A DNA stretch of 64,000 bases, from contig KZ538329.1 of assembly GCA_000934665.2 (NCBI GenBank), positions 1 through 64,000 of the forward strand, written 5' to 3'. This DNA comes from Catajapyx aquilonaris (Eukaryota). Below, piece after piece: positions 210 through 63,602 of this stretch. Under the pieces are notes generated by a model. It had not been told where the DNA came from. It saw only the letters and a program-made list of their open reading frames with translations, and made no database searches. Made by a program: the position numbers and the translations under genes. The stretch's first letter is position 1; each line of letters begins with the position of its first letter.

Positions 210-650
210 CTGATTCTCCCTTCCTCCGTCTCCGTCACTGCCACCGCCTGCATCCTCCTCCTCCTCCCTGGCTGGACCATGCCTCCCTCTGCCGTCCCCC
301 TCTTCCGCTGCACCAGGGTCACTTGTTTCCTGGCCGCTGTTGCCCTCTTCCCGTGGCTCCTCCTTGATGACCCGGGCTGTGACCCCCACCACCTGCTCCT
401 GCCCACCCTCCTCCTCCCCTGGGTCCTCCTTGACCCTCAGACCACCTCTTTCTTTCCAAACTCTCTTGGCCATCTCCTCCTTGGTGAACCTGACGGTGAC
501 CCCCACTGGTTCCTCCTCCTCCTCTGGCTCCACCTTGACCCTGTCCCACTTGGAGTGAGTGAAGCTGTGTCCCAACAGATCAATCCTCCTCTTGAAGATC
601 TTGTCTGGGCAGCATGGGCAGGGGTATCTCCCCAATTTCACCATCTCCAT
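210..650 (-). CDS. 5' coding exon of zinc-finger cluster member E (gene continues beyond the window start)
   Basis: Encodes YPCPCCPDKIFKRRIDLLGHSFTHSKWDRVKVE, the N-terminal module seen in paralogs A, B and C, followed by an acidic linker. ATG at 650; phase-0 donor CAG|GTGAGA at 209. The true start could lie further upstream. Confidence 0.6.
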
Positions 651-1039
651 GGCTGGGGTCTCTCCTTCGAATACTTCCTCAGCTGCTCCACACACTGATG
701 GAGGCTTCAGGGGTGAGGCCAAAGGCCACCCGTCCAGACCCGCTCCGAGGGCAGCGCAGGCGACGGGCCGAATAACGATGAGGGTGCCCCACCGTCACCC
801 TTCCCGCAAGAATGTCCCCCCTTCGAGTCAATCACAACCGCCAAACACTCACCCTCCCAACAATGCTTGTTCCTTCCCCATCCACAGCCCTCAACCGACG
901 CGCCATAGACAACCAAGAACCAACTAGGGCTCACCTCCTCCTTCCATCCCTTCAGACCCAGATAGTTCCCCTTCCCCCCGCCACGAAGGGAGCTGTGGCG
1001 CCACCAGTTGGAATCCATTCTTTTATTAGAATTATACAG

Positions 1040-2060
1040 CATTTCACAGGCATAAGCCAGCTCATTGTCACCTTCGTGATAAAACGTAATGTGATTAATG
1101 TAATCCTTCTCATTATGCAGAATTTTTGAACAATAATGACAGCTGGTAGGTGTGTCGGTCGGTCTCACTTTGCTTCCAGTCACTACTGGTGCTACCTTGG
1201 TGCTACTTGTAATGCATTAAGTGGTTCAATTATTATTCTTCTTCTGATGCTCCATTAAACTGTTGCGATACTTTCTGACAAAAGATGCAATTTTAATAAG
1301 TGGACGAGCGCTATGAAATGCAAGTCGGTAGGGCATAGTGAATGTCTTGTTGCACACTCTGCAGGTTAAAGACTTCCAACCCCTCCGCCGACCCGCATGC
1401 ACCTTTTCGAGTTAGGGAAGTTTATTTCCTATTACTTTACATTGTGACCAACCAAGCTCATCATTTTCTTTGACTTAGGGCCGGTTTCACCGAGCTCAGT
1501 ATATGATAAAACCAGGGTATTTCTCAAAATCCCTGTCTATTTGTATGGATTTTCCTAAAGAAACCTGGTTTTATCATATACCAAGCTCGGTGAAACCGGC
1601 CCTTATAGAGAACTTCGACTTATGGAAGTTTTACTGTAAATGGTTTGTCTCTCTGCACTAAGCTATATGCACATGGAGCTTGTATTGAGAATGGAATCTT
1701 TTGAAACACACCTCGCAGGTTAATGACTTTTGACTACACGCATTTCCAGCAGCATGCCGACTTAATCCTGCCTTTGACTTAAATACTCTGCCACACCGTG
1801 TACAAAAAACAAGGTTTCTTCCTGGTAGGTTGCTTCTTGCAACTCTTCAAACCCAATACCAACTGCCGCTTTCTCCTCCTGAGCTGCTTATTGTTTGGTG
1901 AGGCACTGATGTTAGTTTGCTCATCTTGAACTGCTCTGTCCTGGCTGTTTCCTTCGAAGTGTTCTGAACAATCAGCTGGGTCTTCTTCCTGGGATTAAAA
2001 TCCGTTAAAGAAAAAGTTGTTAGTCCTAACTATTCCGGTAAAATGTTCCTGCAGCTAACC
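1040..2060 (-). pseudogene. Degraded C2H2 zinc-finger paralog D (exon 1 lost, frameshifts, MITE insertion, 3' truncated)
   Basis: Homologous to exon 2 (EEDPADCSE) and to the finger exon (CHYCSKILHNEKDYINHITFYH, identical to paralog C). There is a +1 frameshift at ~1804-1809 and an insertion at 1478-1602. Homology stops at ~1040 within finger 7. Confidence 0.85.
1478..1602. mobile_element. PIF/Harbinger-type (Tourist-like) MITE
   Basis: TIR GGGCCGGTTTCACCGAGCT...AGCTCGGTGAAACCGGCCC; TTA target duplication at 1475-1477 and 1603-1605. Confidence 0.85.
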
Positions 2061-2771
2061 TGCAAAAAGCTCCAGAATTCAAATACGTACCATGTAGACA
2101 TTACAGACTTTTATTGGAACAAATCATTAGATTTTATTAGTTCATTGGCCTTTCAGGTAATTTACACCTTCATGGGGAGGGAACTGTCCCTGCAGGATTA
2201 TTAATTCAATTGTTTTCTACAATCCTACAAAACCCAACGTGCATTTTTACTACAGTACATTATTGTTATGACTACCTTATTTTCATATGAATTGATATGA
2301 CCTTACTAAAGATAAGTACAATTTGAGTCCTTTATTGGATACAGTGTACAGCAATCCGAAGGTCACACATGACCTCATAAGTAAGTCTCATTAACCTAAC
2401 TTCCTATTTAAAATTTCATCATTACTTACATAGATCTAAAGAAGCCTCATATAAGACAGTACAGAAGTGTACTTGTTAAGCACATAACTGAAAAATAACT
2501 TGGGTTAAAAAAATAACATGAAAACGCATGCAGATATCCTTAATGACAACACAATCATGTCTGACCATCTTTACCAACGTCACTTTTTGTCATTTTCAAC
2601 TTGGCATTTCTGCATATGGCGTTTCAGGTCAAAGGGCCTTTTGTAAACCTTTTCACACCCATCACACTGGAACTTTCCTTGATCATCAGAGTGCACATAT
2701 TTATGCCCTTTCAGACTTTTATGGGAACTGAAAATCTTGGAGCAAATGTTGAATTCAATACATTTCTTAGG

Positions 2772-5700
2772 TTAATGCTTTTTCATATGATCGCGCAGAC
2801 GACTAGTTGATATAAAACCCTCTGAACAAATGCTACATGTGAAGGGCCTCTCGCCAGTGTGACGTCGTACATGAATGTCAAAGTCCGTCTTAGACATGAA
2901 CATGCGATGGCAAACGGGGCATTTATGTTCTTTGTGTCCCCTTGTCTTGTGACCATGACACCTTTTCCTGTGATAAAGTAAATTGCTTCTATGGCCATAT
3001 TTTTTTGAGCATTCTGGACAATTGTAATTCGGCACCTCTCCTTTGTGAACTCGCCTCCAATGATCTTGCATAGAATATTTATCAGAAAAGCTTTTAGGAC
3101 ATTCTTTGCAAACATAACCCTTCTTATCTTTATCTTTGCCATGTGCTGTTTCCATGTGCAACTTCAGACATTCCTTCAGCTTGAATCCCTTACCACACTG
3201 ATTACACATAAAATTAGTTTTATCTGAATGGAGCAGCAGCATGTGGCGCTCCAGATTCCTTTTTGACATCAATTTTTTTGAACACAAGCTGCACTTGAAT
3301 CGTTTCTCACCAATGTGAGTACGCATATGTCTCACAAGGTAACATTTGCTAGAAAAAATCTTGCTACAGTGGTCGCAAGTGTAGCCATTGCAATTAAAGT
3401 TATGGCTGCTCTGTTTGTGCATGTTCAAACGATAGGGAGATTTGAACTTCTCTGAACACATTTCACAGGCATAAGCCAGCTCATTGTCACGTTCATGATA
3501 AAAAGTAACGTGATTAATGTAATCTTTCTCATTAGGTAAAATTTTGGAACAATAAGGACAGCTGGTAGGAGTGTCTGTCTCACTTCCCATCCCTACAGGT
3601 AATGCATTAAGTGGTTCAATGATTTCTTCACCCGAATGCACCCTCTGATGCTCCTTTAAACTGTGGCGATACTTGAATGATTTCTGGCAAACGTTGCAAT
3701 TAAAAGGCTTACTATCAGAGTGGACTGCCATGTGCAATGCAAGTCTGGAGGGTCTAGGGAATGTCTTGTTACATACTTCGCAGGTTAAAGCCTTCTGACC
3801 CTCCCTCCAACCCTCATGCTGTTTTTCGTGACTCTGCAAAGTGTCAAGATACTTGAATGATTTCTTGCATTTTTTGCAGGTGAATGGTTTGTCTCTGTGC
3901 ACTGCACTATGCACATGCAGCCTGTAGTGAGAAGAGAATTTTTTCCTACACACCTTGCAGGTTAATGACTTTGGACTACATGCATTTGTATCAGCATGCC
4001 GATCTAACCCTGCTTTTGTCTTAAATACTCTACCACAGCGTGTACAACAAGGTTTCTTACTGGCAGGCTGCTTCTTGCGACTGTTTAACCCCGATACCAC
4101 CTGCCTCTTACTCCTCCTGAGCTGCTTATTGTTTGGTGATGTACTGCCCTGAAAAATGACATTGATGTTAATTCAGTTGCAGGGCCAGTCTTGGGGGATA
4201 AGGGTCCCCACTGGTACAGGGTACACAAGGTTGACTTATGCAAGGGGTCTGGTGATGCTGGGCAGAAGGGGCAGATCCTAAATGTGGGAGGCATGACCAT
4301 TGACAGAATGGAGATTTATTGCTTCCTTCTGGTCAGCAATCCTTCTGATAGCAAAGGAGGGGGAGAAGAAGTGTCCTCACGGTCACTCAATGACCCTGCA
4401 CTTAGACATAATTCCCCTTTTCTTTTATACCTACAAAAACCCAAAACAGTTTTATCAGTTAGGGAGTAGTACCAGCTGCTTATTGACCCTTTGTATGGGT
4501 TATCAGTTGGTTTTAAATTTCGATAGCAGGAAGTGACGGCACAGAAATTAGGAAACAGCACCTGCGGCTTACTGACCCTTTGAATCGTGGTTTTGTATGG
4601 GTTTAAAGTGTGGGAAGTGACCAGGGACTCCGGAATTAATTCCTCAAGCTGGACCAGAATGCAGGCGGGATCATTGTTATCCGTCAGGGCGAGGCCCTGG
4701 TTACGAATAACCTGCTTGCTTGCAGCTGAATTCTGTTTGTTACATGGAATTGTGCTTTAGTATTCTTTTCGGGTCTTTGGGGATTCTATTCGGGACAGAT
4801 TTTGAGGTGATTATAGGATTGAATAGCCCTTTGTCTTGGTGATGCTGTATGGCTTTTTGTTACCGCAACAGTACTGTCCATTGCTGTGGGCTTGTCACAG
4901 GCATGGTACTTTGCCAATTCGTGATATTTTTAGTTTTTGCGGAGCGATAGCAGAGCTGGGCCTTATTGTGGGTTTGTATACGCCTACAATGCGGTCACTG
5001 AACGTTACCGTAGCTTTGCCGATTCCCGATCTGCCCTCCTCCACTTGGCTCTCCCCTTCAATCATGTCTACGACTCACTCTGCAGATGTACTGCTGCACA
5101 TGCTCAGGAAACACGGCTGGTGTGACTGCATGTCGTTCTTAGGGTTAACCAGAGCCTGGGGTTAAATAATGAACTGAACCATCGTTTAAATTAGCCACCT
5201 CCTTCTCAGCACTCGTCTGATAGGTTTGAGTGGCAGGTAAGGTCCATAGCCAATACGTTTGGAGCCCACCCGACCCATCCAACCCCGCCGCGTCTCTACA
5301 TGCGGATAAACGATAGACTTTCCTTTCCATTGTTGCCTAATGCATTCTTAAGCTGGAGTGTTTGTAATAACCTAGCACCTTACAATTCGACCTGAGAGAT
5401 GACAATGATGCTATCTGCATTCTGCTCCAGCATGAGGAATTAATTGCGGGTCCCTGGTCACTTCCCCCACTTCAAACCCACACAGAACAGCGATTCGAAG
5501 GGTCAGCAAGCCACAGGTACTGTTTCCTAATTGAGTTGGCGATTGGCCTGTAACCCAACATAAGCTAAAATACCTGGGTGCAATGAGTCACAATTTTATC
5601 CGAGATTGCTACGTAAATCATAGTCTGTGATAAAAAGCAATGAAAGAAAGTAACATCATTATGCTACCAGTCTTTCCCACATTGATCAAAACTTCAAAAA

Positions 5701-7228
5701 CCCTCTGCCTGTTTTGTGAATGAAGGATTACTTCTGGACAACTTCGATGGCTAAGAACAGCGTGCCTTAAAATAATTGTGTTCCGCAAAGATATTAAGAT
5801 GCAAATAGTCATTATCTCTGTTACAGCTAATGCACAGAAAATAAAAATATTTTCCAACATTATATTTTGTCTCATAAGCTCAACATAAAGAAAAGAAAAG
5901 TGTCCAAATAGTCAGTTACTTGAGTCGAGAATGTTGCCATTGGAGTCACGATTCAGATGATATCAAGAGTGACTTTATTTCTATCGAAATGCCAGGCAAG
6001 CACCTGGACTGGTCTGTCACAATTTAATGTGGATGGTGAGAGTGGGGACAATTATACATGGTCCTCTCTCTAACATATTGCAATTTACTTACTGCAGGGT
6101 CTTCTTCCGTGACCTTATCCTCTGCCTCTGAGTCGCCACTCTGCAATGGTGAATCAACTGTCGTTTCAAGGCCTTCGCTGTCAAGTAGTTCATCACCAGT
6201 CTCACTGTCAGTTGCCCCATCCTGACCTCCTTCTCCTTTGACGTGGCACGGCCACAGAGCTGGTCCTTCCTCCTGAAGACAACAATTCGAATGATCAGAA
6301 GGATGTCCATGGCCACCATTTCCAATGCCCCCAATCCCCCTCCCCAAACAACCGTGCCAAGTGGAGGCCAACCTCCACTTTGATTTCCATCTTCAGTCCC
6401 CCATCCTCCAGACCCCCTTCTTCTTCTTCTTCCTTCACTTGGACATCTCCTGGTACATCTGGCTCATCCTCCTCTTCCTCTTCCTCTCTCCTGTGGGGCT
6501 CAAGTGGTCCATTGCCAGGTTCAGTCGCCCCGTCCGGACCTCCTTCTCCTCCTTTGATGTGGTATTGCCACAGAGCTGGTCCTTCCTCCTGAAGAAGACA
6601 ACAATTATTCGAATGATCAGGAGGGTGTCCATGGCCACCATTTCCAATGCCCCCAATCCCCCTCCCCAAACAACCCATGCCAAGTGGGGGCCAACCTCCA
6701 CTTTGATGTCCATCTCCAGTCCTCCTTCATCCTCCAGACCTTCTTCTTCTTCTTCTTCCTTCACTTGGACATCTCCTGGTCCATCTGGCTCATCCTCCTC
6801 TTCCTCTCTCCTGTGGGTCTCCAGTGGTCCATTGCCAGGTTCAGTCGCCCCATCCGGACCTCCTCCTCCTCCTCCTCTGACGTGGCATGGCCACAGAGCT
6901 GGTCCTTCCTCCTGAAGAACAACAATTCGAATGATCAGAAGGGTGTCCATGGCCACCATTTCAATGCCCCCAATCCCCAAACAACCCATGCCAAGTGGGG
7001 GCCAACCTCCACTTTGATTTCCATCTTCAGTCCCCCATCCTCCAGATCTTCCTCCTTCACTTGGTCATCTCCTGGTCCATCTGGCTCATCCTCCTCCTCC
7101 TCCTCCTCCTCTCTTCTCCTGACCTGGTCCCATCTGCTGTGGGTGAAGCTGTGGACTAGAAGCTCCAAGTGGGTGGGGAATGTTTGGAGACAGCAACGAC
7201 ACTTGTGCAGGCCACTAATTGGATCCAT
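2772..7228 (-). CDS. C2H2 zinc-finger protein, paralog A; exons 7007-7228, 6696-6911, 6373-6588, 6093-6272, 2772-4148 (~736 aa, 14 array fingers before an early stop)
   Basis: All four introns are GT-AG and phase 0, giving one open frame. N-terminal CRCC..HSFTHSRWD module; tandem fingers with HTGERPF/HIGEKRF linkers. TAA at 2772-2774 replaces the TCA found in B and C. Confidence 0.8.
4546..5532. mobile_element. Non-autonomous DNA element with ~120-140 bp imperfect terminal inverted repeats, in the last intron of paralog A
   Basis: 4546-~4665 (AATTAGGAAACAGCACCTGCGGCTTACTGACCC...) is the reverse complement of ~5415-5532. No transposase is recognisable inside. Confidence 0.65.
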
Positions 7229-7917
7229 CACTGAAAAAATTAGCACCTCATTAGCGAAAAGGAAATGAGAAACAGGCGCATAAAGTGCTGGACTAAAGAA
7301 AACAACTGTCAACAGGCCTGTTATACACTGACAACATTTTAGACGAAGTTGTGGGGGCTTTCGCATTGCACTTTCTCACCTTGTATCCAGTTTACAGCCA
7401 CAAAATCACACATGAGAGCTCATCCCACAACTTCGAATAGATTTTCTGCTGGGCAATCTGCCTATTCACAGTTTTCTTCGTCATTCAGTAGTTTTTTGTG
7501 GCACGATTATTTCTTTAGGCTCTCAAATCTTTCTTAACCTCCTGAGACCCGGCATCCAATATATTGGACATCTGGAAAAGTTTTTTTTGGCACCAACTAG
7601 TGATGCAAACAGAATTGTAATCTGTTGGTATCCCACAATCTGGGCCTCAATAGGTGTAGCCACCTACTGTCGAATATCTGACTTGGGCCTCGAAAATTAA
7701 ATCGAATATTAAATGGCGGATGCTACTGCTGAAGCTAGGTGCTCATCTGATAAGTTTTATTTTTTTCCTCATACTTAGAGTGCGATTTTCGTCAATGCAG
7801 CGAATGTCCTGGGATTCACAAGGAATGTCCATTAGGAAATACGAAAAGATGTGTCTGTGACAGTCTTCGTTGCCGTAGAGGACTGGCCATTTTCTTTTCT
7901 TCCTGAGACCAAATGCC

Positions 7918-7918
<1 letters not shown>

Positions 7919-7960
<42 letters not shown>

Positions 7961-7991
7961 TCATATATTCATTCATTCATTCATTCATTCA
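7919..7991. repeat. (TAA)n followed by (TTCA)n microsatellite
   Basis: Directly visible. Confidence 0.9.
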
Positions 7992-9024
7992 TTACACTCA
8001 CGGCATATTCCCAAGATGGGGTTACCAGCGATGACCAGGAGGTACAAACCACCTGACCATCTCGAATGACCAATTTAATGAATCCTTTCCAAAATGTTCC
8101 TCATCTCACGCCCGTTCATTTGATATACGTGTAATATAATGGGGTTACAACAATACATTCTGAGATGGCCGAGCCACCAACCTGGCTGGCTTGTCATAGA
8201 ATGACAGAGACGCACCCGGCCACACTATTTATTTTATATCTCGGAACCTAATACGAATACAACAATGGAAATGCATACCACTGAAAGGGTATGAGTTGCA
8301 GATTACTCATAAAAATTTTCGTAAAATGCGACTTGGTGCGGGTCGTCACGCCTCCTTATTTACTGTATTTGATATCTCGGACCCTAATACGAGGGCCAAA
8401 ATGAAACTTGCAGTACTGAAGGGGATATGATCTTCCAAAATGGCACGTAATTTTAATCGTAGAATTTTTTGGAGGTTATCTGCGGGTTTGGCGTTTACCT
8501 TGTATAGAATTTAAAGCCCCATTTTGCATGCATGTGGGACGCATAATTATTAGAGAAATTATCGCGTTATTGTAAACATCAGAATGGAAAAGTTCCCATT
8601 TTTGACCTCGTCATTTCTTGTCACCTATAGCGGATAGCGGTTATCTGGTTTGAAAAATATGTCCCTGTGACCTTGACAAAATACAATCCTAAGCACCAAA
8701 TTTCGATTTTCTAAAAATAATTTTAAAAAATAATTTAAAAAAGTCGGGTGAACATCGTTGTATGATCTCAAATGGAATTTTACCCAAACTAGAAATAAGT
8801 TGCACGAATAGTAGCGGCGCTCTCAAACAGCGACCCAGACCGTGCTGCCACTTGCGGGACTGTGTGACCAAGGGACCGCGGCCGTGACCGGTGAGCAGGG
8901 TCTTGTGGATTCCGGAACATCGCCAAATCAACATGTCCGTAACTTGGCAGTGCGCCCAGGATTACCAACACATAAACACAAAAACACATAAACAGTCGCG
9001 ACATTACTTTTGCGGTCAATAGTA

Positions 9025-9359
9025 CAGTGCTGGACAAAATAGCCGTCGCTGAATGTTTTTTTCCGGCGGCAGCGGAGGCGGCGTTACCTGGCAACCCTGT
9101 CCGGTGGGCCAATTCAAACATCTGCCCATGGAGATCGCTTCGATTGTTGCCACTGTTTACAAATCGAACGAGTGACGCGGACGACCCAGCGACGGGTCTC
9201 TTCTGCCTGCGCACTCACTCACTCGATTTGTAAACAGTGGCAACAATCGAAGCGATCTCCATGGGCAGATGTTTGAATTGGCCCGCCGGACAGGGTTGCC
9301 AGGAAACGCCGCCGCCGTCGGAAAAAAACATTCAGCGACGGCTATTATGTCCAGCACTG
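9025..9359. mobile_element. Tc1/mariner-type foldback MITE nested in the piggyBac-like element
   Basis: TA|CAGTGCTGGACA...TGTCCAGCACTG|TA with ~140-bp near-perfect arms. Confidence 0.85.
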
Positions 9360-11093
9360 TACACCCATAAGGAAGTGTGCTTTTCACTATACAGTTCGGT
9401 TTTAAAATCTAGAATAGTGAGGTACCATTATGGGAGGTCAGAAGGGAAGGAGCAAGGCCCATGGTGGAGTGGTGGCCTTTCAAATAATTTCATATTTATC
9501 TTTAATTGTCTCCTGAGAGGATTTGCTACCATGAATTCCACAAATGAATGTAAAAAAACATTGTTTGGAGGTTAGAGCACTATGCGAGTGATCAATTGAG
9601 TGGCAATTAAACTTTTCAACATTTATCCGCTCTGCTTTTGTAGCAGGAATTGCGTCCTAATGTTCTCATTGGTTGTTTGTCATAATTTATTTCAATATTT
9701 TAGAATTATGATTATTTTTTTTCTCGTTTCTTATTGGGAACATGTTCAAAAAATGCAATAGGAACTGACATTGCGTTACTCAATTCTTCTCGGGTCTCAG
9801 GAGGTTAAACAAGCCAATGGGTAGTGAATAATTTGCAAACCTTCTACAACCAGTATTAATGGTGGCAGTCATCATTTCCAATTGTGACAAAAAAATACTA
9901 GCAACATGTAGTTTCTTTTTGACACTAGCTTTAGGCAGACTGTTGACCTCCCTGCCCTGTTTTCATTACCTCCTCACGAGTGGACGTGTCTTCTTCAGAT
10001 CTCACAAGGGGCAGGAGGATCCGAGGCCGCCGCCTTCTTCCTTCTTCCCAACCAGAGGATAAGAGGACGAGAGAAGAAGAAGAGAAGGCTTCTCATTCAT
10101 CGGCCATGTTGGGCCAGTCCGAATAGAGCAACGGGCTTCCCCTGGCTTCGTCGGTTCGTCCGAATGTGCCCAGTATGGCAGTTCACATTCCTGCCAACAG
10201 ATGGCGAGGGTGGTCCTTGTGGCGGCAAGATATGTTTTCCTCAAGTTTTCCTGGAGTTATTTCCATCCACCCGAGGGTCCACCAGTAGGTCAATCCTGAA
10301 GTGCAGCAGAACCAAAACCACGACCGAAACAATGACATCAACAGCAGTTCACTTCACCGTTCACTTTAATACCTTGTTGACCAGATGACAGAAGGAGACG
10401 AGCAGATGATCAGCTGTCTTGATGACCAGATGATCTGATGCATGTGCTAAAAACCTTCCCTGTTAAAAACTACCCCTAATGATCACCCTGGGGCATACTA
10501 TGTCAAGGCCGCCGTATTGATTTGCATCCGGAACATACAGACAGGACATACAGATATACGTTGAGAAATATGTATTAGATTATATAGAAGTTCTTTAATT
10601 CCATTGAAGTTTTTTGGTACACCCTGTAGGTTCAGGTTCAAAATATAACCTAAAATTCGAAACCAGCTACCCCGAAAATATGGGGAGACATAGTTTTTAC
10701 ATTTTTACGTGCTTAAACGGTTTATTTGAGGAGCTATCATTTTCGATCGCGTTTTTTTCTGTTTCTGATAAATTTTACATTTACAACAACCACGGGAAAA
10801 TGGGGGGGGGGGGGGGGTCATGCAACAAACTTCCACATTAATTTTAACGTGATTTAGTTCCTCTTCCAGCACTTAGCTTCCTTAATACAATAGTCTTCTA
10901 CAATCCTACAAAACCCATTATTGTTATGACTACCTTATTTTAATGTTAATTGATATGGCCTTACTAAAGATAAGTACAATTTTAGTCCTTTATTGGATAC
11001 AGTGTACAGCATTCCTAAGGTCACACAGAACCTCAAAAGTTAGGTCTCATTTAAAACCAAACTTTCTACTTAGAATTTCATCATTACTTACAT

Positions 11094-11117
11094 CAAGAGC
11101 TAATAACTTAGCTCTTG
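11094..11117. mobile_element. 24-bp palindromic transposon remnant or footprint with 7-bp TSD
   Basis: CTTACAT|CAAGAGCTAATAACTTAGCTCTTG|CTTACAT. The paralogous site downstream of gene C (~15664-15670) has a single CTTACAT. Confidence 0.75.
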
Positions 11118-11265
11118 CTTACATCTAAAGAAGCCTCATATAAGTTAGTGTACTTGTTAAGCACATAAATGATAAATCACTTGGTTAAAAAAATTACCTG
11201 AAGACGCATGCAGATATCTTTAATGACAACACAATCATGTCTGACCATCGTTAGAAACTGAAACA

Positions 11266-13470
11266 TCACTTTTTGTCATTTTCAACTTGGCATTTCTGCA
11301 TATGGCGTTTTAGGTGAAAGCGCATCTTGTAAACCTTTTCACACCAATCACACTTTAACTGCGTTGCTTGCTGCGTTGAGTGCACAGATTTATGCTTTTT
11401 CAGACTTTTATGGGAACTGAAAGTCTTGGAGCAAATGTTGCATTCAAAACATTTTTTACGTGAATGCTTTTTCATATGATCGCGCAAATGACCAGTGGAT
11501 ATAAAACCCTCTGAACAAATGCTACATGTGAAAGGCCTCTCGCCAGTGTGACGTCGTACATGAATGTCGAACTCACTCTTCAGCAAGAACATGCGATGGC
11601 AAATGGGGCACTTATGTTCTTTGTGTACCCTTGTTTTGTAACCATGACACTTTTTCCTGTGAGCTAGTAAATTGGTTCTGTGGTCATATTTATTTGAGCA
11701 TTCTGGACAATTGTAATTATGCACTTCTCCTTTGTGAACACGCCTCCAATGATATTGCATATTATAATTATCAGAAAAGCTTTTAGGACATTCTTTGCAA
11801 ACATAACGCTTCTTATCTTTATCTTTGCCATGTGCTGTTTCCATGTGCAACTTCAGACAATACCTGAGTTTGAATCCCTTACCACACTGATCACAAATGA
11901 AATTAGTCTTATCTGAATGGAGCAGCAGCATGTGGCGCTCCAGGTTCCTTTTTGTCATCAATTTTTGTGAACACAAGCTGCACTTGAATCGTTTCTCACC
12001 AATGTGAGTACGCATATGTCTCACAAGTGTAGATTTGTTAGGAAAAATCTTGCTACAGTGGTCGCAAGTGTAGCCATTGCAATTAAAGTTATGGCTGCTC
12101 TGTTTGTGCATATTCAAACGATAGGGAGATTTGAACTTCTCTGAACACCTTTCACAGGCATAAGCCAGCTCATTGTCACGTTCATGATAAAAAGTAACGT
12201 GATTAATGTAATCTTTCTCATTAGGTAAAAATTTTGAACAATAAGGACAGCTGGTAGGTGTTTCTGTCTCACTTCCAGTCCCTGCAGGTAATGCATTAAG
12301 CGGTTCAATGATTTCTTCGCCCGAATGCACCCTCTGATGCTCCTTTAAACTGTGGCGATACTTGAATGATTTCTGGCAAACGTTGCAATTAAAAGGCTTA
12401 CTATCAGAGTGGACTGCCATGTGCAATGCAAGTCTGGAGGGTCTAGGGAATGTCTTGTTACATACTTCGCAAGTTAAAGCCTTCCGACCCTCCCTCCGAC
12501 CCTCATGCTGTTTTTCATGACTCTGCAAAGTGTCAAGATACTTGAATGATTTCTTGCATTTTTTGCAGGTGAATGGTTTGTCAATGTGCACTGCACTATG
12601 GACATGCAGCCTGTACTGAGTACGGAATTTTTTCCTACATACCTTGCAGGTTAATGACTTTGGACTACATGCATGCCGATCTAACCCTGCCTTTGTCTTA
12701 AATACTCTACCACAGCGTGTACAACAAGGTTTCTTCCTGATAGGCTGCTTCTTGCAACACTTACTGTTTAACCCCGATACCACCTGCTGCTTACTCTTCT
12801 TTTGCTGCTTATTGTTTGGCGATGTACTGTCCTGAAAAATGACATTTATGTTAATTCAATTATTACAAGTGATGATCTCCAACCTCCCAGGAGTAATTTG
12901 AGTTGATATGACTGGCACTACCTGTATATTACGTGGTTCTGTGCCAAGAGAACCTCATAAGCAGGGTAGTTTGTACAGTATTTAAATTTTTTACAATCCA
13001 TGAAATAATTGCACTTACTTCATGCACTTTGGTGGGTATGGTGACAGTGGCTTTGCCGTTGGTACCTTCTGATGGTGCATTCAAGCACCTCTCGCCGGAC
13101 GGTTCATCAATAGGCTCATATCGAATAATTGGTCTGTCCTGACTGACTTTCTCTGCACAATCAGCTGGGTCTTCTTCCTGTCATTAAAATCAGTAAATGA
13201 CATTGCTACCCCTAACTATTCCTGTAAAACATTCATGCAACAAACCTTCACATTAACTTCAGGGTGATTAACTTCCCCTTCCGGCACTTCTTCCTTCACT
13301 CTGACGCCTATGGTGACATTAAGTCCAGCACCCTGGTCTTCCTCCTCTTCCTCCTCTTCCTTGACCTTGTCCCATCTGCTGTGTGTGAAGCTGTGTGCAA
13401 GAAGCTCCAAGCGAGTCCCGAATTTCTGAAGGCAGCAAGGACACTTGTACAGGCCACCAGCTGGATTCAT
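11266..13470 (-). CDS. C2H2 zinc-finger protein, paralog B; exons 13246-13470, 13019-13177, 11266-12831 (~649 aa, N-terminal finger-like module plus 16-finger array)
   Basis: ATG at 13470; phase-0 GT-AG introns at 13178-13245 and 12832-13018; uninterrupted finger ORF; AATAAA (minus strand) at ~10989-10994, conserved in A and C. Confidence 0.9.
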
Positions 13471-15350
13471 CCCTCACAGATAACACAGATCTGTGGTCAC
13501 TTGGATGCAAGTACGCATTGCCTGGCAAAGCTGGACAAACGCCCTTCTACTCTCCGTGTCTTGCCTGCTGAAACTAAAGCCCTTAGCCCTGCTAAAGCGT
13601 TACTGAACGAAAGAAGAAGAAAGGAAGAAAAAAAACACACATTTCGAAAACACCCGCGGCTTCTCATTGGTTTAACGGGCGCTATAAACCATCTGAGGGC
13701 CCCTGGATACCAGAGTGACTCCGAGGGGACTTGGTAACTTTATACTTCCAACGGCTGTGCAGGAATCTGCTGACAACTGAACATGTCGGATTATGTTGCA
13801 TGAAGCCTTAATTAGTCTCAGGCAGAAGGAAGCCAAAAGCTAACAAAAGTTTCGGAGTTGAGATTCGGAATATGATATAATTATGAATGATTTGAAACAT
13901 ATTGATAATAATATTATAGCATAATACATATAGTATTGTACGGTACCGTGCATGGATAAGGACAACAGTATGGTTGAGCAGTTTTCTCTCTATGGGTGTG
14001 TGATTGGGGGCAGGGACGTCGGAACCATCCCCACTATTTTTTGGAGTGGGGGGGGGGGGGGGGGGGNGGGGGGGGGGGGCAATGGTTACCATTTGCCCCC
14101 GCTATTTGAAATGGTCACATACATACATTTAAATATTAACCCCCATTTTGTTTATCTTCTAAAACTATAAATTTGAAGAAGGAAAATCGACTCGTCAACC
14201 GGAATTTGTGAATGCACCATTAGTCGTCCATTAGTGATTAGCGACGGCCTAGGAGAGAGGGGGCGAGCCGGAAATGGTTTGAAACGGGACTCTTCGGCGG
14301 TAGCTTCAGTGCCGGCTACTACTTCTGTATATTAGGCAGGGATGCCGCAAAAATCTTGGATAGGAAGGAAGTCAGTAAGTGCTATAAAATCGTCACGAAT
14401 CCCGTTAAAAGGGGTCCCCAGCAGTTTTTCTGGAAAACTAAAGGAAATACTTGAAAGAGAGTCTCAGTTTGTGACTCGGGGGCGGCCCTTTGTATCGTCG
14501 GTGTTCTTCCGTATTCCGTTGGACATTTTGCATCTCATCTGACCGTCCCTAAACACCCCTTGGTCGTACTTACCCCCACCCCCTTCCCACTCCCTCCAGT
14601 CGTCTGTTGCCCCACGCCAGCCATGAATGAGCATATCGGTATGTGTTGGATTATCGCTAAATAATTATGATAATAATTACACCGTTTCACAGCCTTTCGA
14701 GGTCGGTTCCCTCCTTCTCTTGGCTTCCGTTGGATTCCCATTTTTGACGAGCACAATTTGTGAAAATAATTATTGTACTTATGAAAATATATTAATTTGC
14801 CTTAACGAGAGAATTAAAACGTAACTTTGGCACATAAAACAGGCACCTGCAGTATTTTGATTCCCAGCATATACTGCCATCAATTTTATGCAAAAACAAT
14901 AGGTTCATTATTTTAGCTGTAATGTTGTTTATGTCGGAGTTTTGTAAAACACTGGAGCAGTTTTCTGTATAATTTTAAAGTCAAAATACAAGCGACAGAC
15001 AAAAGAGAGGAGGTGGGCAACCTTTCTGTCATTGTTACTAATATTAGTAACACTTACTGTAACATTCACCTAAGCTTGTGTGACAAAAAAAAAAATTGCC
15101 TGCGGCGGGCTGCTTCTTTGCCCTCCACTCATCCCTGATGGGGGTGTGTGCGACGGGGAATAGACGAATTTATTGCAAATTTTGCAATAAATTGCAAGAA
15201 AATTTATACGAGTGCTGATAATAATTCGTGCTAATTAATGCACGGCTGTGCCCGGATATTCGAAAAACATGGATAATCCGAAAACGGTCCTGTAGACACC
15301 GCAAAAATGAGCTATCCAGAGGTTTTTAATGAACTTCCTGGAACTACTAT

Positions 15351-15384
15351 TAAGAGCTAATAACCAGCTAGTTATTAGCTCTTG
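15351..15384. mobile_element. 34-bp (17+17) palindromic transposon remnant or footprint with 7-bp TSD
   Basis: CTACTAT|TAAGAGCTAATAACCAG-CTAGTTATTAGCTCTTG|CTACTAT; same terminal sequence as 11094-11117. Confidence 0.75.
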
Positions 15385-15793
15385 CTACTATACGATGGAA
15401 CTGTCCCTTCAGGATTACGATTATTAATTCAATAGTTTTGTACAATCCTATACAAAACCCAACAGGCAACTTTACTGCAGTACATTATTGTTATGACTAC
15501 TGTATTTTAATGTTAATTGACGTGGCCTTACTAAAGATAAGTACAATTTGAGTCCTTTATTGGATACAGTCGTGTACATCATTTCTAAGGTCACACATAA
15601 CCTGATAAGTAAGTCTCATTGCCCAAACGTTCTACAAGTAGCCTACTTAGAATTTCATCATTACTTACATCTAAAGAAGCCTCATATAAGAGTAGTGTTC
15701 TTGTTAAGCAAATAACTTGGTTCAAAAAATAACATGAAGTAATTACTAATGACAACACATTACACATATGTCTGACCATTATGGTGGCAAACA

Positions 15794-18054
15794 TCACTCT
15801 TTTCCTTTCTTACCTTGACATTTTGGCAAATGGCGTTTTAAGTAACAGAACCTTTTGTAAACTTTTCCACACCAATCACACTTTAACTGCTGTTGTTCAT
15901 CTGACTCTGAGTGAACACATTTATGCGCTTTCAGACTTTTATGGGAACTGAAAGTCTTGGAGCAAATGTTGCATTCAAAACATTTTTTAGGTGAATGCTT
16001 TTTCATGTGGTTGCTCAAATGACGAGTTGATATAAAACCTTCTGAACAAATGCTACATGTGAAGGGCCTCTCGCCAGTGTGAAGTCGTACATGAATGTCA
16101 AACTTGCTCTTTGACAAGAACATGCGATGGCAAATGGGGCATTTATGTTCTTTGTGTCCCCTTGTCTTGTGACCATGACACCTTTTCCTGTGAGTAAGTA
16201 AAGTGCTTCTATGGCCATATTTATTTGAGCATTCTGGACAATTGTAATTCCGTACTTCTCCTTTGTGAACACGCCTCCAATGATCTTGCATGTTATAATT
16301 ATCAGAAAAGCTTTTAGGACATTCTTTGCAAACGTAACGCTGCTTCTCTTTATCTTTGCCATGTGCTGTTTCCATGTGCAACTTCAGATATTCCTTCAGT
16401 TTGAATCCCTTACCACACTGATCACATATGAAATTAGTCTTATCTGAATGGAGCAGCAGCATGTGGCGCTCCAGGTTCCTTTTTGTCCTCAACCTTTTCA
16501 AACACAAGCTACACTTGAATCGTCTCTCACCAGTGTGAGTACTTATATGTCTCACAAGCGAAGATTTGTTAGCAAAAATCTTGCCGCAGTGGTCACAAGT
16601 ATGGCCATCGCAATTAACGTTATGGCTGCTCTTCATGTGCTTATTCAAACGATGAAGTGATTTGAACTTCTCTGAACACATTTCACAGGCATAAGCCAGC
16701 TCATTGTCACGTTCGTGATAAAACGTAATGTGATTAATGTAATCCTTCTCATTATGCAGAATTTTTGAACAATAATGACAGCTGGTAGGTGTGTCTGTCT
16801 CACTTCCAGTCCCTGCAGGTAATGCATTAATTATTGGTTCAATTATTATTCTTTGACCTGAATGCACAGTCTTCTGATGCTCCGTTAAACTGTTGCGATA
16901 CTTGAATGATTTCTGGCACAAGTAGCAATTAAAAGGTTTACTATCAGAGTGGACTGCCCTATGTAATGCAAGTAGGTAGGGCGTAGTGAATGTCTTGTTA
17001 CACACATCGCAGGTTAAAGCCTTCCGACCCTTCCTCCGACCCTCATGCACCTTTTCATGACTCTGCAAAGTGTCAAGATACTTGAATGATTTCTTACATG
17101 TTTTGCAAGTAAATGGTTTGTCTCTGTGCACTGCGCTATGCACATGGAGCCTATAGTGAGAAGGGAATTTTTTCCTACATACCTTGCAGGTTAATGACTT
17201 TCTACGACACGCATTTGCATCAGCATGTCGACCTAACCCTTCCTTTGACTTAAATACTCTACCACACCGTGTACAACAACAAGGTTTCTTCCTAGTCTTC
17301 TTCTTGCAACTGTTTAAACCCGATACCAACTGCCGCTTACTCCTCCTGAGCTGTGTATTGTCTGGTGATGTATTGCCCTGAAAAATTACAATTAAATTAC
17401 AAGGGTTGATTCCAGGGAGTTTCTTTCATGGTTTGCTTTGTTGTAAGTTGCATGACAGTTTTACAAATAGGCCTACAATTTTAAAAATCTACACTTCTGC
17501 TACATAATTCACAACATGATCCAGCACAATTGGAAGGGCTCAGTTTGTATGAACTTTAATAGAACTACTGTACATGATTAAACTGTCCTCCTTATCATCC
17601 GTGCAGCACTTGTAGTCTACTTACTTCATTCACTTCGGTGACAATGGCTCTCACATTGGTACTTTGTGATGGTACATCCAGGCATCTCTCGTTAGGAGGT
17701 CCACCAATAGGCTCGTGTTGAATTGGTATGTCCTGACTGACCTCTTCTGAACAGTCAACTGGGTCTCCTTCCTGGAGTTAAAATTCATAGATTTTAAAAA
17801 AATTATAGCCCTTCTTGTAAAATGTTGATGCTGCCAACCTTCTCATTAAATTCAGCATCCCCTTCCGGCACTTCTTCCTTCACTGTCACTCTGACGCTTA
17901 CAGTGACATTAAGTCCGCCAGTGCCCTCCTCTTCCTCTTCTTCCTTGACCTTGTCCCATCTACTGTGTGTGAAGCTGTGTGCAAGAAGCTCCAAACGAGT
18001 CCCAAATTTCTGATGGCAGCAAGGACACTTGTGTAGACCACGAGATGTATCCAT
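15794..18054 (-). CDS. C2H2 zinc-finger protein, paralog C; exons 17839-18054, 17625-17771, 15794-17377 (~648 aa, 16-finger array)
   Basis: ATG at 18054; phase-0 GT-AG introns at the same positions as in paralog B; intact finger ORF. Confidence 0.9.
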
Positions 18055-18777: not shown

Positions 18778-19069
18778 CCTGCCGAGGGGTTTTGCAGTGG
18801 GTGCTCACCTGAGACCGCCACGAGACATTTCCCAGAGCATTTATGTGGCGACCCTACCGGACTAAGGCTGAACTTTACAGGTACGAAAGGGAAGCGCTAC
18901 ATGCTGGCCCAACATGGCCGCCGGCGGCCATGTTGGGCCCCCCAATGTAGTCCTCCCCTTTAGTACCTATAAAGTTCAGCATTAGTCCGGTAGGGTCGCC
19001 ACATAAATGCTCTGGGAAATGTCTCGTGGCGGTCTCAGGTGAGCACCCGCTGCAAAACCCCTCGGCAGG
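18778..19069. mobile_element. ~290-bp foldback with essentially no spacer (MITE-like)
   Basis: Outer arms CCTGCCGAGGGGTTTTGCAG...CTGCAAAACCCCTCGGCAGG are nearly perfect; centre CCAACATGGCCGCCGGCGGCCATGTTGG. Confidence 0.8.
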
Positions 19070-19433
19070 TGATAAGCCCAGAAGATAGGGGTAGTGTACG
19101 TGGGCTGGTCCAGCCCATCTTTAATGTAATGGTCAGGATGACTTTGCTGAAAATGTTTGCTAACTACGCGTACCGTATTATCCTGAACTTTAAAAATCAA
19201 TATATCAAGCGTTCATATGTGGTTCCCATGCTAAATCTTCATATACTAGCTTTGACAGCACAAACTATACTGAAGATTTTCTCATAAAGCATATTAATTA
19301 AATTGATTTATTTAGGCGTATTTAACAGTTCATTGTGTACAAATTTTGAACTGTATTCAAACTCTTACTTGCAAAACTTCACAAGAAGTATTCACACTCA
19401 AACTAAAATAATTATGCATCATATACACGTATG

Positions 19434-19863
19434 CAGAGTGTCCGTGAACCGACCAGTCAGACCTTTACCCGTGGCTTAAATGACACGAGAGGATCATGTT
19501 ATGTAGAGGAGTCATTATGCCTGGGCAGCCTCATTACCGAGATAATGGATCATTTGCCATTTAGCGATTGGGCCTAAGAGTGATTGTAAAATATCAGTGA
19601 CAAGTGCGTGCATGTGCGTGTCAGTGTGTGCTGGTGTGTCCCATGCGACATGCTAGTAGCCAAATGGAAAAGCTGCTATTATTTTACCGGTGATGCGATT
19701 TCGGGGCTGAAGGTTTCCATACCACCCAAGATACTTTGTACCAATTTGTACTTGTCGTTTGAAGGCAATAATCTCAGACGTAATGACTCCTCTGCATAAC
19801 ATGATCCTCTGGTGTCAATTGAGCCACGGGTACAGGTCTGACTGGTCGGTTCACGGCACCCTG
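19434..19863. mobile_element. Tc1/mariner-type MITE with ~90-bp TIRs
   Basis: CAGAGTGTCCGTGAACCGACCAGTCAGACC...GGTCTGACTGGTCGGTTCACGGCACCCTG|TA. Confidence 0.75.
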
Positions 19864-22182
19864 TATTAGGCCTACTGTATTATAGTTATTAGGATCAATG
19901 CATCCTTCGAGTTTAGACACTTGCAAACACATCCATTTTTATCATTTTTTGCGTCTGTTTCAAATATGTTATCCCATATTTTCTAGAACCCACAGTTTTT
20001 AAGTAATCGGCATTTTTTAAAGTGTCAAAGAACTTCCCCTGATATACTGTATAGGCCTGAATCCACACCCAATATATTGCCGTATCCTGACATAAAATTC
20101 ACATGTTGATTTTCTGCTGTACCTGGCTTGAGAACATCCCTCTAACGACTAACTGAACATAATTATACACGAAGAAGTAGAGGAATTGAGGGAACAATAG
20201 TTGACACATACGCTGCATAGGTATACACAGTACATTATATGAAATCTGAGTGAAATATTCAAAACATAGCTTGGTTATGAGTCGTACACTGAAATTCCTC
20301 ATAATTTGACACTGGACACTGGATAATAAGACTTAATTAATGGATGGCTCATGTTTCCCCTGTTGTGACAGCAGCAAATGAACCAGAATTACTCAGAATT
20401 ACAAGTATATTACAGCCTGTAATATACTTGTAATTCATATTAAAGATTTTAAAGTAGCCTACGACATTTTAAAATATGCATAGGGTCATATTATTGAGCC
20501 ATATATGTTACTTTTCTAGAAGAGCTAGGTTTGTTTCAAGAAGATTGTTGGCGATAGAAAATTTCTGACTTCATATGCAACACCAGCGCCTCTGAATGCG
20601 TAAGAAATATCGCACCTAATATTGTTAACTTGAAAAAATATCATCGTTGACCAGTGTAAAATAATGTATCCATTCAGCTCTTGATCCATTATAATAATAA
20701 TTACAGACCTTGCGTAAGTGCCTGCACAAGAGGTGTGTGACCCTGTGTGCACTCTGCACTGTGAACTTGCGCAGCAGGACGGGGCCTACGGGATTCTTCA
20801 GGCTTGGTACCGGATGGTGAGCCCTCAAGGTGTACACAGGGTTGTCAATATTCCATAGAGCACGTCAGCACGACCCCGAAAAATGCAGGAAATTGCCATC
20901 CAGTTGGCCTCCAAATACCCTTGTCCCCAGTGACTTCGTATTTCTTGCCCTGTACACTGTACAGTGACCCTCGGCCTCGACCCCTGCCTCGACTGGAAGT
21001 CGGGATTCCTAATTGAAGGCACCTGCTGATGTCCCCCCTTTCGTCCCAAAATTTTCGCCCCTTCAACCTCCTGTAGTATATCCGGCACTGATTTAACCCT
21101 CCAGTCTCGGTGAAACCCTTTCGCCTCCATCTCCATCTTTCATCCAGCACTCAAGCAAATATGTAAATCTTCATTATATTGTGCGAATGTGTACTGTGCG
21201 AGATAATTTGCAATCCTTACGAAATATTTCTAATAGCCAGAGTATACAAGTGTACGGATCAGCGAGAGGCCCCTATATATGGCCCTATCAGCGCGGGGCC
21301 CGTAGCACGTGCTACATGTGCTACTATGTAAAACCGCCCCTGGGCACCTCGAGAAGGAAACAAAAGTTTCAGGCTGGATTTTCTGAATACCATTCGCATG
21401 CACACTGTTGAAAATTATACCCACATAACTATTAGTACCGGTAATGTACGGTTTAGTACAGTATAATAACATCGTCTATTACAGTATTATAGAAATTAAT
21501 GTTTGTGTGTTTGTTTGTCCATTTCATGCCCATGGAAGAAATTCAAAGTTTGTTTGTTTGTTTGTCCCAGCTCCCAGGCTTGGTTACCATTGCGACGGGG
21601 TAAGCATGGTTGCTATGTCAAAGGGAATTTTCAGCCTATTCAGTTTTCTTACAGACATTACAGCTCATTACAGCTCTGTTTATGCAAATAAATAAACATA
21701 TCAATTAAGGGATTTGCGAGAATGTAATTATCAAAAATTCCTCCAACAGATGGCGGTAAGTACGCTGGTTTTTTCGCCATCTGTCCAGCATGAGTCGAAC
21801 TACTCCGGAGTTGAAAAGCGGCAGAATTCAAACGCACTTCGGCATCATCGATGTGATATAGTGTGACACGTGAAATATAAACCTAGAGTAGGCTACTGTT
21901 TATCAATACGTGTGTGGGTGTGTATGTGTGCTGGCGGGACATACCTGGCGCCAAACTGTCCGAAAGTTGATGCCGTCGCTGAAAATTGGGGGGTTGACAG
22001 GTATCGGAGAAGCGGTTTCCGGGAAAAAGGGGGGGGGGGGTTGGCGGGGGATGGGGGAATGTGCAAAGATCCAATGATGCCGTTTTGGGTGGGTGGGATA
22101 GAAAGCGAAGGACGCCTTCAAAGTGCCGCCTGTGTGATCCTGCAGGAATGTGTTTGGGGAAGGAGGAGGGATGGAGGGATGG

Positions 22183-24940: not shown

Positions 24941-26503
24941 TCAGTCGTCCTTCCTTTTCCGCACTTTGCTCTCAGTCTGGATTGTCTCTGTGAGAAGATG
25001 GACACAGTCCGCCAGAGACGGCTGGCTCCTGTCGTGTGAATAGTCCATCTCGCTCAGTCTGGACAGGGCCAGTATGTACGAGCTGGCGATCCTGAGGATG
25101 GACAGTTTGGACAGTTTCTGGTTGTGCGAGTAGGCCGGCACAGCCTGGCGAAGGTTCTCGAACGCGGCGCTGATGGTGTGCACTCGCGTGCGCTCGCGTG
25201 CGTTAGCCTCGACCCTCCTCTCGCGTGTCATGTTCTTGTAATTCCGCTGCTTCAACAAGGCGGCGTTGCTGCTGGACGTCCGATGGTTGCTTGGAGATGA
25301 GGTTGAGGAATGAGGCGTGGACGAGGATGAGACGGCGGCGTCGGCAGCGTCCGGTGTGGCCGGAGCAGGACTTGAACTTTGACTAGCGCAGCACTCGTCC
25401 AGGCGCCACGATGGCGACGGTGCCAGAATGGACTCGACGCTGAAGGACTTGTTGGGCCTGCTGGTGCTCGGAAGGACTGCCGGAGTGGCGCTGCTTCCGG
25501 GCGAATCCCGCTCTCGACAGTCCACCAGGACGTCCTCGTCCTCGTCCAATCGCTCTACTTTCACCTGAGGCTGAAGAAATAATGATCATTAACATGGATC
25601 ACGCTCAAATATACGGTACTATATATGATTTTTTAACGAGCTCAACCGAGTGCGCACCCACATTCGCGCAAGTCCATTGTTCCGTCAACAACTGATCTTT
25701 TCTCATCGTAAAAAAGGACTAAATGCCTCTTTACGTCCTCACGATTTGAGCCTCGGTCGCACGACCAGACGCTTTGCGACCGGACCTATATTTATGTCGG
25801 TCGCAAAGCGTCTGTGCGACCGAGGCTCAAATCGTGAGGACGTAAAGAGGCCTTTAGACCGTTTTTACGACGAGAACAGGCCTCGATTCTTGAAAACACC
25901 TCTAAAAACAACCATACTACGAAAAAACGTCGTATCTGCACTGATAAGGTGCAGATGTGACGTTTCTTCGTAGGACTAAAGTTCCACACATGTCAGTTGC
26001 TATACCTGAGATCTGCTGACGACGAGCGACAAGGGCTGCTCCTCCGGTTCTGGTTGTAGGACCCAGCAGCACCGGGGCGACTGCAGGGGCGGCCCCGGGG
26101 CTAGCGGATGGTTAGGAAGGTACATCAGGGGAAGGAACTGGTGCGGATGGATCGGCATGCCCGGCATTGGAAACGGAAAGTGCTGGGGCGGCGGCGGGGG
26201 TGGAGGAGGTGGCGGTGGGGGCAGGGGCGGCCCCGGGGCAGCTTCCGGAGAGGCCAGGACCTTCCGCTTCTTAGGCAGCGTGGCCACCATCAAAGGCGGT
26301 TCTTTTCTCCGTGGCTCCAACGCCTTCCGCTTGTTGCCCCGCCTGGACATGACCGGAGACGTTGAGGACACCACCATCGACGCTGACGACGCCGTCGACG
26401 CCACCGGTCTGCTGATAACGTGAACCTTAACGTCCACGCTGTCTTCGCTGGAGTCCGTCGAACACATCTCTTCAGGCTCCGGACCAGCCAGAGACATCAT
26501 CAT
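24941..26503 (-). CDS. net: Atonal-superfamily bHLH repressor Net / ATOH8 ortholog; exons 26006-26503 and 24941-25570 (alternative acceptor gives 25564), ~375 aa
   Basis: bHLH RRVEANARERTRVHTISAAFENLRQAVPAYSHNQKLSKLSILRIASSYILALSRL is characteristic of Net/ATOH8. Phase-0 donor CAG|GTATAG at 26005; acceptor TTCTTCAG at 25571. An acceptor at 26508 precedes ATGATGATG, implying a non-coding upstream exon. Confidence 0.93.
25700..25876. mobile_element. Foldback MITE in the net intron
   Basis: GCCTCTTTACGTCCTCACGATTTGAGCCTCGGTCGCAC...GTGCGACCGAGGCTCAAATCGTGAGGACGTAAAGAGGC. Confidence 0.75.
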
Positions 26504-27939
26504 ACACCTGCGAAAAATGGAAGAAGGACTCATTATTAGATGCATGCATGATGCTGGCATTTGAGTAATGGCGACCACCAGTGAAGGTCTGGCAACCAAA
26601 ATGACGCGGACAAATTGGCTCGATCAATTTCGAGGGCACCAGTCGCCGGATCACAAAGATATAGATAAACTAGTTGGTTCAGGGGAGATCTCCCGGCATT
26701 CATTTTTTTTTGGACCAACCGCAGCGACAATCGAACGAGCTAGTTGTCCACCCCAGCAACTCAACAAAAAATGCGTAAATTTCACCTCAATTATTCCGCA
26801 TAAGTGGAGCAATGTAAACTAATAAACAAGCCACGCCCTTCCGCCTTTCATAAATTTATTATGTAGGTATTGCCCGTGTGTACAATGCGGGTTAGCGCAA
26901 ATAATGACCGGTTGTAACCTCACTGCAGATTTAACCTTGCTCTCTGACCTATACTCTGCACTGGTTTAAAAAAAAGGGGGAGAGGAAGAAAATTGTGCCA
27001 AGAAATTCCTTTTATCTGTTGGAGCCGGAAGATCAAAGTTGAGAGAGAAAAAGGGCTGGAGGGCAATGGGGGTAAAAAACGAGACAGGATCAAGTTGGTA
27101 CTGCACTGTACAGCTTCCCAACCACCCCCTCAGGACAATTCTTAACGACACGACGATATAACTAATACCCAGGATTAATTATTTTCCCCAGTGATTAAAA
27201 TCCCCAACCGCACAATATCCTCGGCACCCAATAAATTTTCCTTGAAAATTGGCAGCGCCCATGACTCCCCAATCTTCATTTTTATATAACTCGATTAACT
27301 ACGAGACGATCTCATCTAAAAATGACTGGCATGTCGTTAGGTACATATCTCGACAAACAAGTGGTTGTCCCACGTAATTTATGTTTTGAAAAAAATTGGT
27401 ACATCGATACACCTGGTTGAACAAATGCACCTTTTGTTTCCTGGGCCCTCAACCTGTCGCCATGTGCGCTTATGGGGGGAAAAAAAAGTGCGCAACAGCT
27501 GCTCCCATATACACTTGGCACAGGAAAAAATGTACGTATATACACCACCTGCGGAGAGAGACAGCCGTCAACAGAACTCGCAAACTGAGCCAGGATAGTC
27601 TTTGGCGGTGAAAGACTTTCAAGAAAAAAATAGATAGCATCCATATAGAAAAAAATGGCGACGCTCGTCAACACACAACAGTGATTTGATCAAAAAAGTT
27701 TCAGATAACTTTTTTAGAAACTGACTAAAATAGGCACAAAAGCCAAAACAACTATGTAGCTAACATTAGCTTAAATTAACTTACAAATAAAAAGTACTTG
27801 CCACGTGGCGTAGGTCAGTGACCTGCCAGATGGTGACTGCGCACGCGATCATTCATTACTTACAAATTATGCAATAAAATTACCGCATTAGTCATTAACC
27901 AGGCACGTGGCACGCAGGTCAGTATTTTTTCCCCCTTTA

Positions 27940-60293: not shown

Positions 60294-63602
<3,309 letters not shown>

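Follow-up and report, generated by a model that had tools for sequence, protein, structure and literature searches.

What is the role of a short conserved module that heads zinc-finger (ZNF) genes at a distance from their finger arrays? The question is raised by a cluster of five ZNF units at positions 210 to 18,054 of a 64,000-nucleotide stretch of the Catajapyx aquilonaris genome (assembly GCA_000934665.2, contig KZ538329.1; C582:1-64000), which we call the window. The module is real, occurs genome-wide and is under selection, and it is a repurposed C2H2 finger at the front of a ZNF family that has its own N-terminal head. We give a probability of about 0.5 to the reading that this finger no longer reads DNA and serves a large, lineage-restricted ZNF family as a common head for protein docking. 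The broader statement, that it is a protein-interaction finger, either docking or dimerising, is likely to be correct.

Eight columns (C, C, F, L, H, H, W and D) are invariant across all 38 aligned copies of the module. Since the first six constitute the classical C2H2 signature, the module has a known fold, and what the earlier note on this DNA had put forward as an unrecognised type of domain is a C2H2 finger of the classical kind, briefly extended at its C-terminus. The canonical spacing C-x2-C-x3/5-F-x5-L-x2-H-x3-H was found in 166 of 178 modules. The additional Cys of the CxCC motif that had been described occurs in only 60 of these 166 canonical copies, so that the zinc ligands are C-x2-C and H-x3-H. 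Similarly, the string HSFTHS(R/K)WD, said to be nearly invariant, is present in its exact form in only 91 of the 166 and in a looser form in 148. Pfam zf-C2H2_4 matches 34 of the 38 modules at E<=1 (best 3.1e-5; the window copies stay below the curated cut-off), and searches of the PDB by sequence and by fold return C2H2 fingers. The Foldseek rows listed were all C2H2 fingers, many with a root-mean-square deviation (rmsd) of 0.5-0.9 over 22-24 columns and none at E<=0.001, and a wide structure search with the module returned no row at Z>=5. The AlphaFold2 model has a beta-beta-alpha fold in which the helix (20-38) continues through the tail, with a predicted local distance difference test (pLDDT) score of 72, and of 66 in a second model. 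The module is not a KRAB, ZAD, SCAN or BTB domain in the Pfam comparison, as had been expected: the C4 zf-AD domain of ZAD proteins (PF07776) matches none of the 38 modules, in which both His ligands are invariant, and KRAB (PF01352) matches none of the 38 modules and none of the four window exons. A genome-wide KRAB search was blank, but its control likewise matched nowhere.

The module is not confined to this locus. A profile search of the 286-Mb assembly at a threshold of at least 25 bits found at least 178 copies on 134 contigs, with no stretch scoring 20-25 bits and 3610 stretches below 20 bits; two protein searches of the genome gave at least 150 matches each, and the exact DNA pattern of the tail gave 139 matches versus none for the reversed control. 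Two or more modules are found on 23 contigs, which together hold 67 copies. Haplotig duplication as the source of the copy number was mostly rejected, as nucleotide clustering left 176 groups at 97-99% identity (164 at 90%) and the neighbouring basic helix-loop-helix (bHLH) gene, the one control, is single, although indels could hide alleles among the copies. A tree built on few columns, with 42 of the 166 canonical copies, separated an H subfamily (support 99/97) from the K and W subfamilies. A Met is present within 16 amino acids before the first Cys in 146 of the 166. Among the 117 modules with at least 3.5 kb of downstream sequence, 83 are followed by fingers on the same strand (59 by three or more) and none by fingers on the opposite strand; 58 modules showed fewer than three fingers, and when 10 such loci were extended 7 reached three or more. 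H heads precede irregular arrays of 9-18 fingers and K and W heads precede regular arrays with a spacing of 84 nt, often with a second lone finger first; different array types thus stand behind the same module, in keeping with the exchangeable arrays of the earlier note. The second lone finger (of the F-x-T-K-x-x-L-x-x-H type) occupies a small exon of its own between module and array and is found behind 42 of the 166 modules, at loci of the K, W and H types (e.g. L034, L044 and L006). Two or three tandem modules, some 75-105 amino acids apart, share one open frame at L055, L058, L064 and L065 (C3301, C3909, C6763 and C1323).

The differences between the module and array fingers became clear when the 166 canonical modules were set beside 414 other fingers found at the same loci. 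Of the modules, 148 are hydrophobic at both +2 and +5 of the helix, as against three of the other fingers; taken separately, a large hydrophobic residue occupies +2 in 163 modules (44 other fingers), +5 in 151 (17) and +9 in 124 (60). Trp at +14 is found in 92% of the modules and in one of the 414 other fingers. A TGEKP-type linker follows none of the modules versus 212 of the other fingers. As the earlier note stated, the module has C2H2 spacing and is isolated from the array. The entropy at the DNA-contact positions -1, +2, +3 and +6 is 1.1-2.1 bits in the modules versus 3.5-3.7 bits in the other fingers, and in the 38 aligned copies the residues at +2, +3 and +6 are subfamily-specific. An ideal helical wheel puts +2, +5, +6 and +9 at 140-240 degrees, across from the core side with its Leu and His, and the Trp on the core side; in terms of this model the module would bear an exposed hydrophobic stripe and the Trp would cap the fold. 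The face with which a finger reads DNA has thus turned hydrophobic in the module, which therefore probably binds other proteins.

In the mechanism that we propose, zinc would fold the finger, its helix would continue through the Trp-Asp tail, and +2, +5, +6 and +9 would form an exposed groove that grips a short motif of one common, putative chromatin partner. Another module is found within 400 nt of 13 of the 178 modules, which would suit avidity for such a partner. Directly after the tail, at +17 to +20, 116 of the 166 modules carry the motif psi-K-x-E, which is the SUMO consensus; over the tail plus 80 amino acids 305 such motifs were observed versus 27.8 in shuffled sequence, distributed over 160 of the 178 copies. 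SUMO-linked silencing is known in Drosophila, and the lysine just behind the module may be SUMOylated and could help to bring in or retain SUMO-binding co-regulators. The array would select the DNA target, and these targets would change rapidly, in the manner of transposons or other repeats. Repression as the output is plausible, with the chances for and against about balanced, and forms the weakest step of the docking reading; that transposons are the array targets is somewhat doubtful. Both suggestions derive from analogy with the FiNZ and KRAB systems.

Does selection act on the module, or has it merely been carried along? The ratio of nonsynonymous to synonymous substitution (dN/dS, Nei-Gojobori) is 0.38 in the H, 0.25 in the K and 0.34 in the W subfamily (21, 46 and 16 disjoint pairs, respectively, the H set including some divergent copies) and 0.13-0.42 at -1, +2, +3 and +6: the module is under purifying selection. 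For the arrays, 26 of 28 long frames on nine contigs were used, all of the H subfamily (one K-type and one internally repeated frame were dropped). In these, dN/dS at -1, +2, +3 and +6 is 1.70 (bootstrap 1.46-1.98, 13 disjoint pairs of the 26 arrays), versus 0.70 at other finger positions and 0.08 at structural positions, and the DNA-contact residues of the H-subfamily arrays are under diversifying selection. A passenger, that is a leftover finger or a stability or degradation element (e.g. one with UBZ-like ubiquitin binding) spread by recent duplication without a shared effector role, would be in line with the many module copies that are near-identical as protein, with the loss of the module from one gene of the window (gene D, see below) and with weak structural rows for the UBZ domains of RAD18 (Z 2.9, rmsd 3.8, 42 aligned) and Pol eta (Z 2.3, rmsd 2.5, 31 aligned), which tie with ordinary fingers. 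However, the module dN/dS does not reach 0.4 in any of the three subfamilies, at a dS of 0.4-0.7, and residues other than the ligands have been kept across deep subfamily branches that bear different array types, which makes a passenger highly improbable.

A number of observations weigh against a docking head. Omitting the six structural residues raises the module dN/dS to 0.56 (H), 0.34 (K) and 0.43 (W) over all pairs, which indicates that the conservation is in part recent common descent. For the window genes and their closest copies, contact-site dN exceeds dS in only one of six pairs, and three of the 10 extended loci remain at fewer than three fingers. The structure models of the module are of moderate confidence, and psi-K-x-E motifs arise easily in acidic linkers. 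Finally, Arg at -1 (71% of the modules) and a basic residue at +1 (80%) are compatible with nucleic-acid contact. Together with the intact classical fold and a basic residue at +13 (93%) they would also suit a module that anchors the protein on a common DNA or RNA feature (the backbone, double-stranded RNA or a fixed short motif) and so adds affinity to the variable array. By the established C2H2 recognition rules, on the other hand, a lone finger that lies some 150 amino acids from the array, lacks a canonical linker, has hydrophobic residues at +2, +5 and +6 and sits in an acidic neighbourhood (26% D/E) fits DNA reading poorly, and we consider such an anchor very unlikely.

If the hydrophobic face binds protein, the partner could also be a second copy of the module. 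The finger would then serve in homo- or heterodimerisation, functionally like ZAD, and its hydrophobic helix face, perhaps with a beta-prone V-x-V-T-I-x-F segment, would pack on another copy and so bring arrays together in pairs on sites that are long or looped. Single C2H2 dimerisation fingers of this kind, with a CGx-Phi motif, have been described in Drosophila IMZF, Mzfp1, CG1602 and others (Balagurov et al. 2026, PMC12774644); the architecture of eight Drosophila proteins described there is the same as here, with a single N-terminal C2H2 finger serving as effector domain, a separate finger cluster and clustered, lineage-restricted genes, and single dimerising fingers are predicted to be common in insects. 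The beta-prone segment lies within 60 amino acids after the finger in 105 of the 166 copies, with its Thr invariant in 41 of 41 rows that were chosen largely for having that Thr, and the subfamily-specific residues mentioned above could provide pairing specificity. Yet the CGx-Phi motif is found in none of the 166 modules (25 amino acids upstream), where the roughly 10 residues before the first Cys offer no space for the upstream strand, and the conserved extension is C-terminal instead, consisting of helix, Trp-Asp and psi-K-x-E. Folding of the beta-prone segment onto the finger was rejected, as the segment is unpacked in the monomer model (pLDDT about 48), and genes with two or three tandem modules are awkward for a simple dimer. 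A homodimer prediction for the 40-amino-acid module with zinc, made without an alignment, scored 0.03 and counts neither way. There are eight CGx-Phi genes described in the paper versus at least 164-178 module copies, and dimerisation, known for the former, would be a conjecture for the module. On balance we regard a dimerisation finger as rather unlikely and prefer the docking head.

A published precedent for docking is CLAMP, whose N-terminal C2H2 finger binds MSL2 via helix positions +5, +8, +9 and +12 (Tikhonova et al. 2022, PMC9226498). Like the module it is a classical finger that stands alone and has unusual residues at the DNA-contact positions, and +5, +8, +9 and +12 are conserved in the module; however, by its description CLAMP is one conserved gene with a polar or basic surface, and the module heads a large family that turns over fast and has a hydrophobic one. 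Insect ZNF proteins with a lone N-terminal C2H2 finger that mediates interactions are already in the literature (PMC12774644, PMC9226498).

Relatives outside the genome were sought in several collections. One protein collection yielded no outside relative and another yielded six generic ZNF proteins. In a library of 1.84 billion proteins the best 150 matches were all multi-finger proteins, with 31 bits for the best single stretch, and Trp at +14 was found in two of their 2356 fingers, neither of them module-like; proteins are ranked here as a whole and the list stops at 79 bits, which leaves room for a true relative further down. A phage collection gave no match, metagenomes gave no relative (none of six pattern matches had the Cys pair in frame) and a protein atlas gave generic C2H2 or unnamed clusters only. 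No description of the module was found in a literature search, which did not cover motif words, most subscription papers or the supplementary table of predicted dimerising fingers of PMC12774644, where a related domain could be listed. Lineage-restricted here means only absent from the protein and metagenome collections searched, which did not extend to a related arthropod genome, and generic fingers swamp such searches.

How does this family compare to other ZNF expansions? We know of no KAP1 equivalent in the arthropod lineage to which it belongs. FiNZ-ZNFs, which are reported to occur only in cyprinid fish (Wells et al. 2023, PMC10547256), and the KRAB-ZNFs of tetrapods resemble it in the short conserved head encoded by a separate upstream exon, in acidic sequence, in positive selection on the fingers and in a comparable size, with hundreds of paralogues. 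In contrast to both, the head is here itself a zinc finger and the host an arthropod; the distinction from FiNZ is drawn from its description. The insect ZAD-ZNFs (PF07776) also combine a zinc-binding N-terminal module, a linker and a finger array with lineage-specific expansion, but ZAD is a C4 domain of 75 amino acids and the module a C2H2 finger of about 35. There are nine ZAD matches in the genome, all on other contigs (C2790, C5848, C5382, C1853 and C115), far fewer than modules. The ZF271-like/APEZ expansions of Oncopeltus and aphid are likewise independent, clustered and pseudogene-rich C2H2 expansions of insects, for which the source reports no domain besides the arrays, and the same paper asks which alternative partners serve invertebrate ZNF expansions that lack KRAB/KAP1 (PMC6444547). 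Elsewhere dozens of uncharacterised families are mentioned (PMC10547256). One answer would be a KRAB-like silencing system built from a zinc finger, in which an ancestral finger lost DNA reading and gained the Trp-Asp extension and a SUMO site, so that far more than 150 rapidly evolving ZNFs bring one putative co-repressor to transposons; we consider this full scenario unlikely. The kind of system is already known and the surprise is moderate. For direct pull-down the family offers a folded bait of 35-60 amino acids that well over 150 paralogues have conserved. It also carries the concept of one C2H2 finger acting as effector from a dipteran family of eight genes to one some twenty times that size, whose arrays bear an arms-race signature.

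The window itself holds five paralogs, all on the minus strand; as the earlier note had stated, two are intact (A and B), one is truncated (C), one is dead (D) and one is partial (E). Together they bear out its birth-and-death view of the family, and its MITE-dense setting is matched by the presence of young miniature inverted-repeat transposable elements (MITEs). Its four modules are all where it had placed them, each with a Met 9-10 codons 5' of the first Cys (Cys1/His2/Trp at 620/557/548, 7201/7141/7132, 13443/13383/13374 and 18027/17967/17958). The splice models derive from the DNA letters (a search for RNA runs gave none for gene A), with donors picked at homologous positions in A and B, where several in-frame exon-1 donors are possible; in these models the module would indeed be N-terminal and separately encoded, in its own exon 5' of the array exon.

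Gene A (15794..18054; exons 18054-17839, 17771-17625 and 17377-15794, GT-AG) is modelled as 648 amino acids with module M4 (17935..18054; a solitary C2H2 finger with Trp-Asp tail and psi-K-x-E, H subfamily) and 16 array fingers, and gene B (11266..13470; exons 13470-13246, 13177-13019 and 12831-11266, GT-AG) as 649 amino acids with module M3 (13351..13470, H subfamily) and 15 array fingers. Their linkers, said barely to align, do align, at 75% nucleotide identity over 478 bases. Gene C (2772..7228; exons 7228-7007, 6911-6696, 6588-6373, 6272-6093 and 4148-2772) would encode 736 amino acids with module M2 (7109..7228, H subfamily) and 14 fingers, a stop at 2772-2774 removing the final two. It carries a triplicated acidic exon-intron unit (GT-AG introns of 95-107 nt), and because this unit is spliced in the five-exon model the gene is open and its apparent frameshifts disappear. 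Gene D (about 1040..2064), recognised by self-BLAST and translations, is the dead remnant of an A-like gene, with frameshifts, a MITE insertion and no module. The MITE (1477..1603, no strand assigned) is young, with 40-nt inverted arms; all 39 other scored copies are 99% identical, out of 646 candidates in the genome. Of gene E the first coding exon (210..650) is present, with module M1 at 650-525 and an acidic psi-K-x-E linker, the remainder lying beyond the contig; M1 belongs to the K subfamily, set apart from the H modules of genes A-C by the support given above.

Further long inverted-repeat elements at 4546-5532, 9022-9362, 18778-19069 and 19431-19866 (arms of 54-125 nt) are probably MITEs or non-autonomous DNA transposons. 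On the minus strand at 24941-25585 lies an atonal-homolog-8/net bHLH exon that is present once in the assembly; its best named matches are insect proteins, about 75% across the bHLH region, with none close among the 120 matches listed, which suggests an arthropod host and probably a hexapod. An open frame upstream (26000-26623) may be the first exon of this gene. Exons at 60243-60746 and 63231-63602, also on the minus strand, presumably encode the C-terminus of a JNK/basket kinase. Elsewhere in the genome a divergent subgroup of modules without the Trp scores 32-34 bits (L181-L185, on C3875, C1188, C3915 and C5425), and the four that were checked lack a C2H2 array within 4 kb; downstream of one of these lies a frame (L196) with a Cys pattern that we take to be GATA-like. 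Downstream of a module gene, a 739-amino-acid frame (L189:1-2217, minus strand) resembles a retroelement protease/pol.

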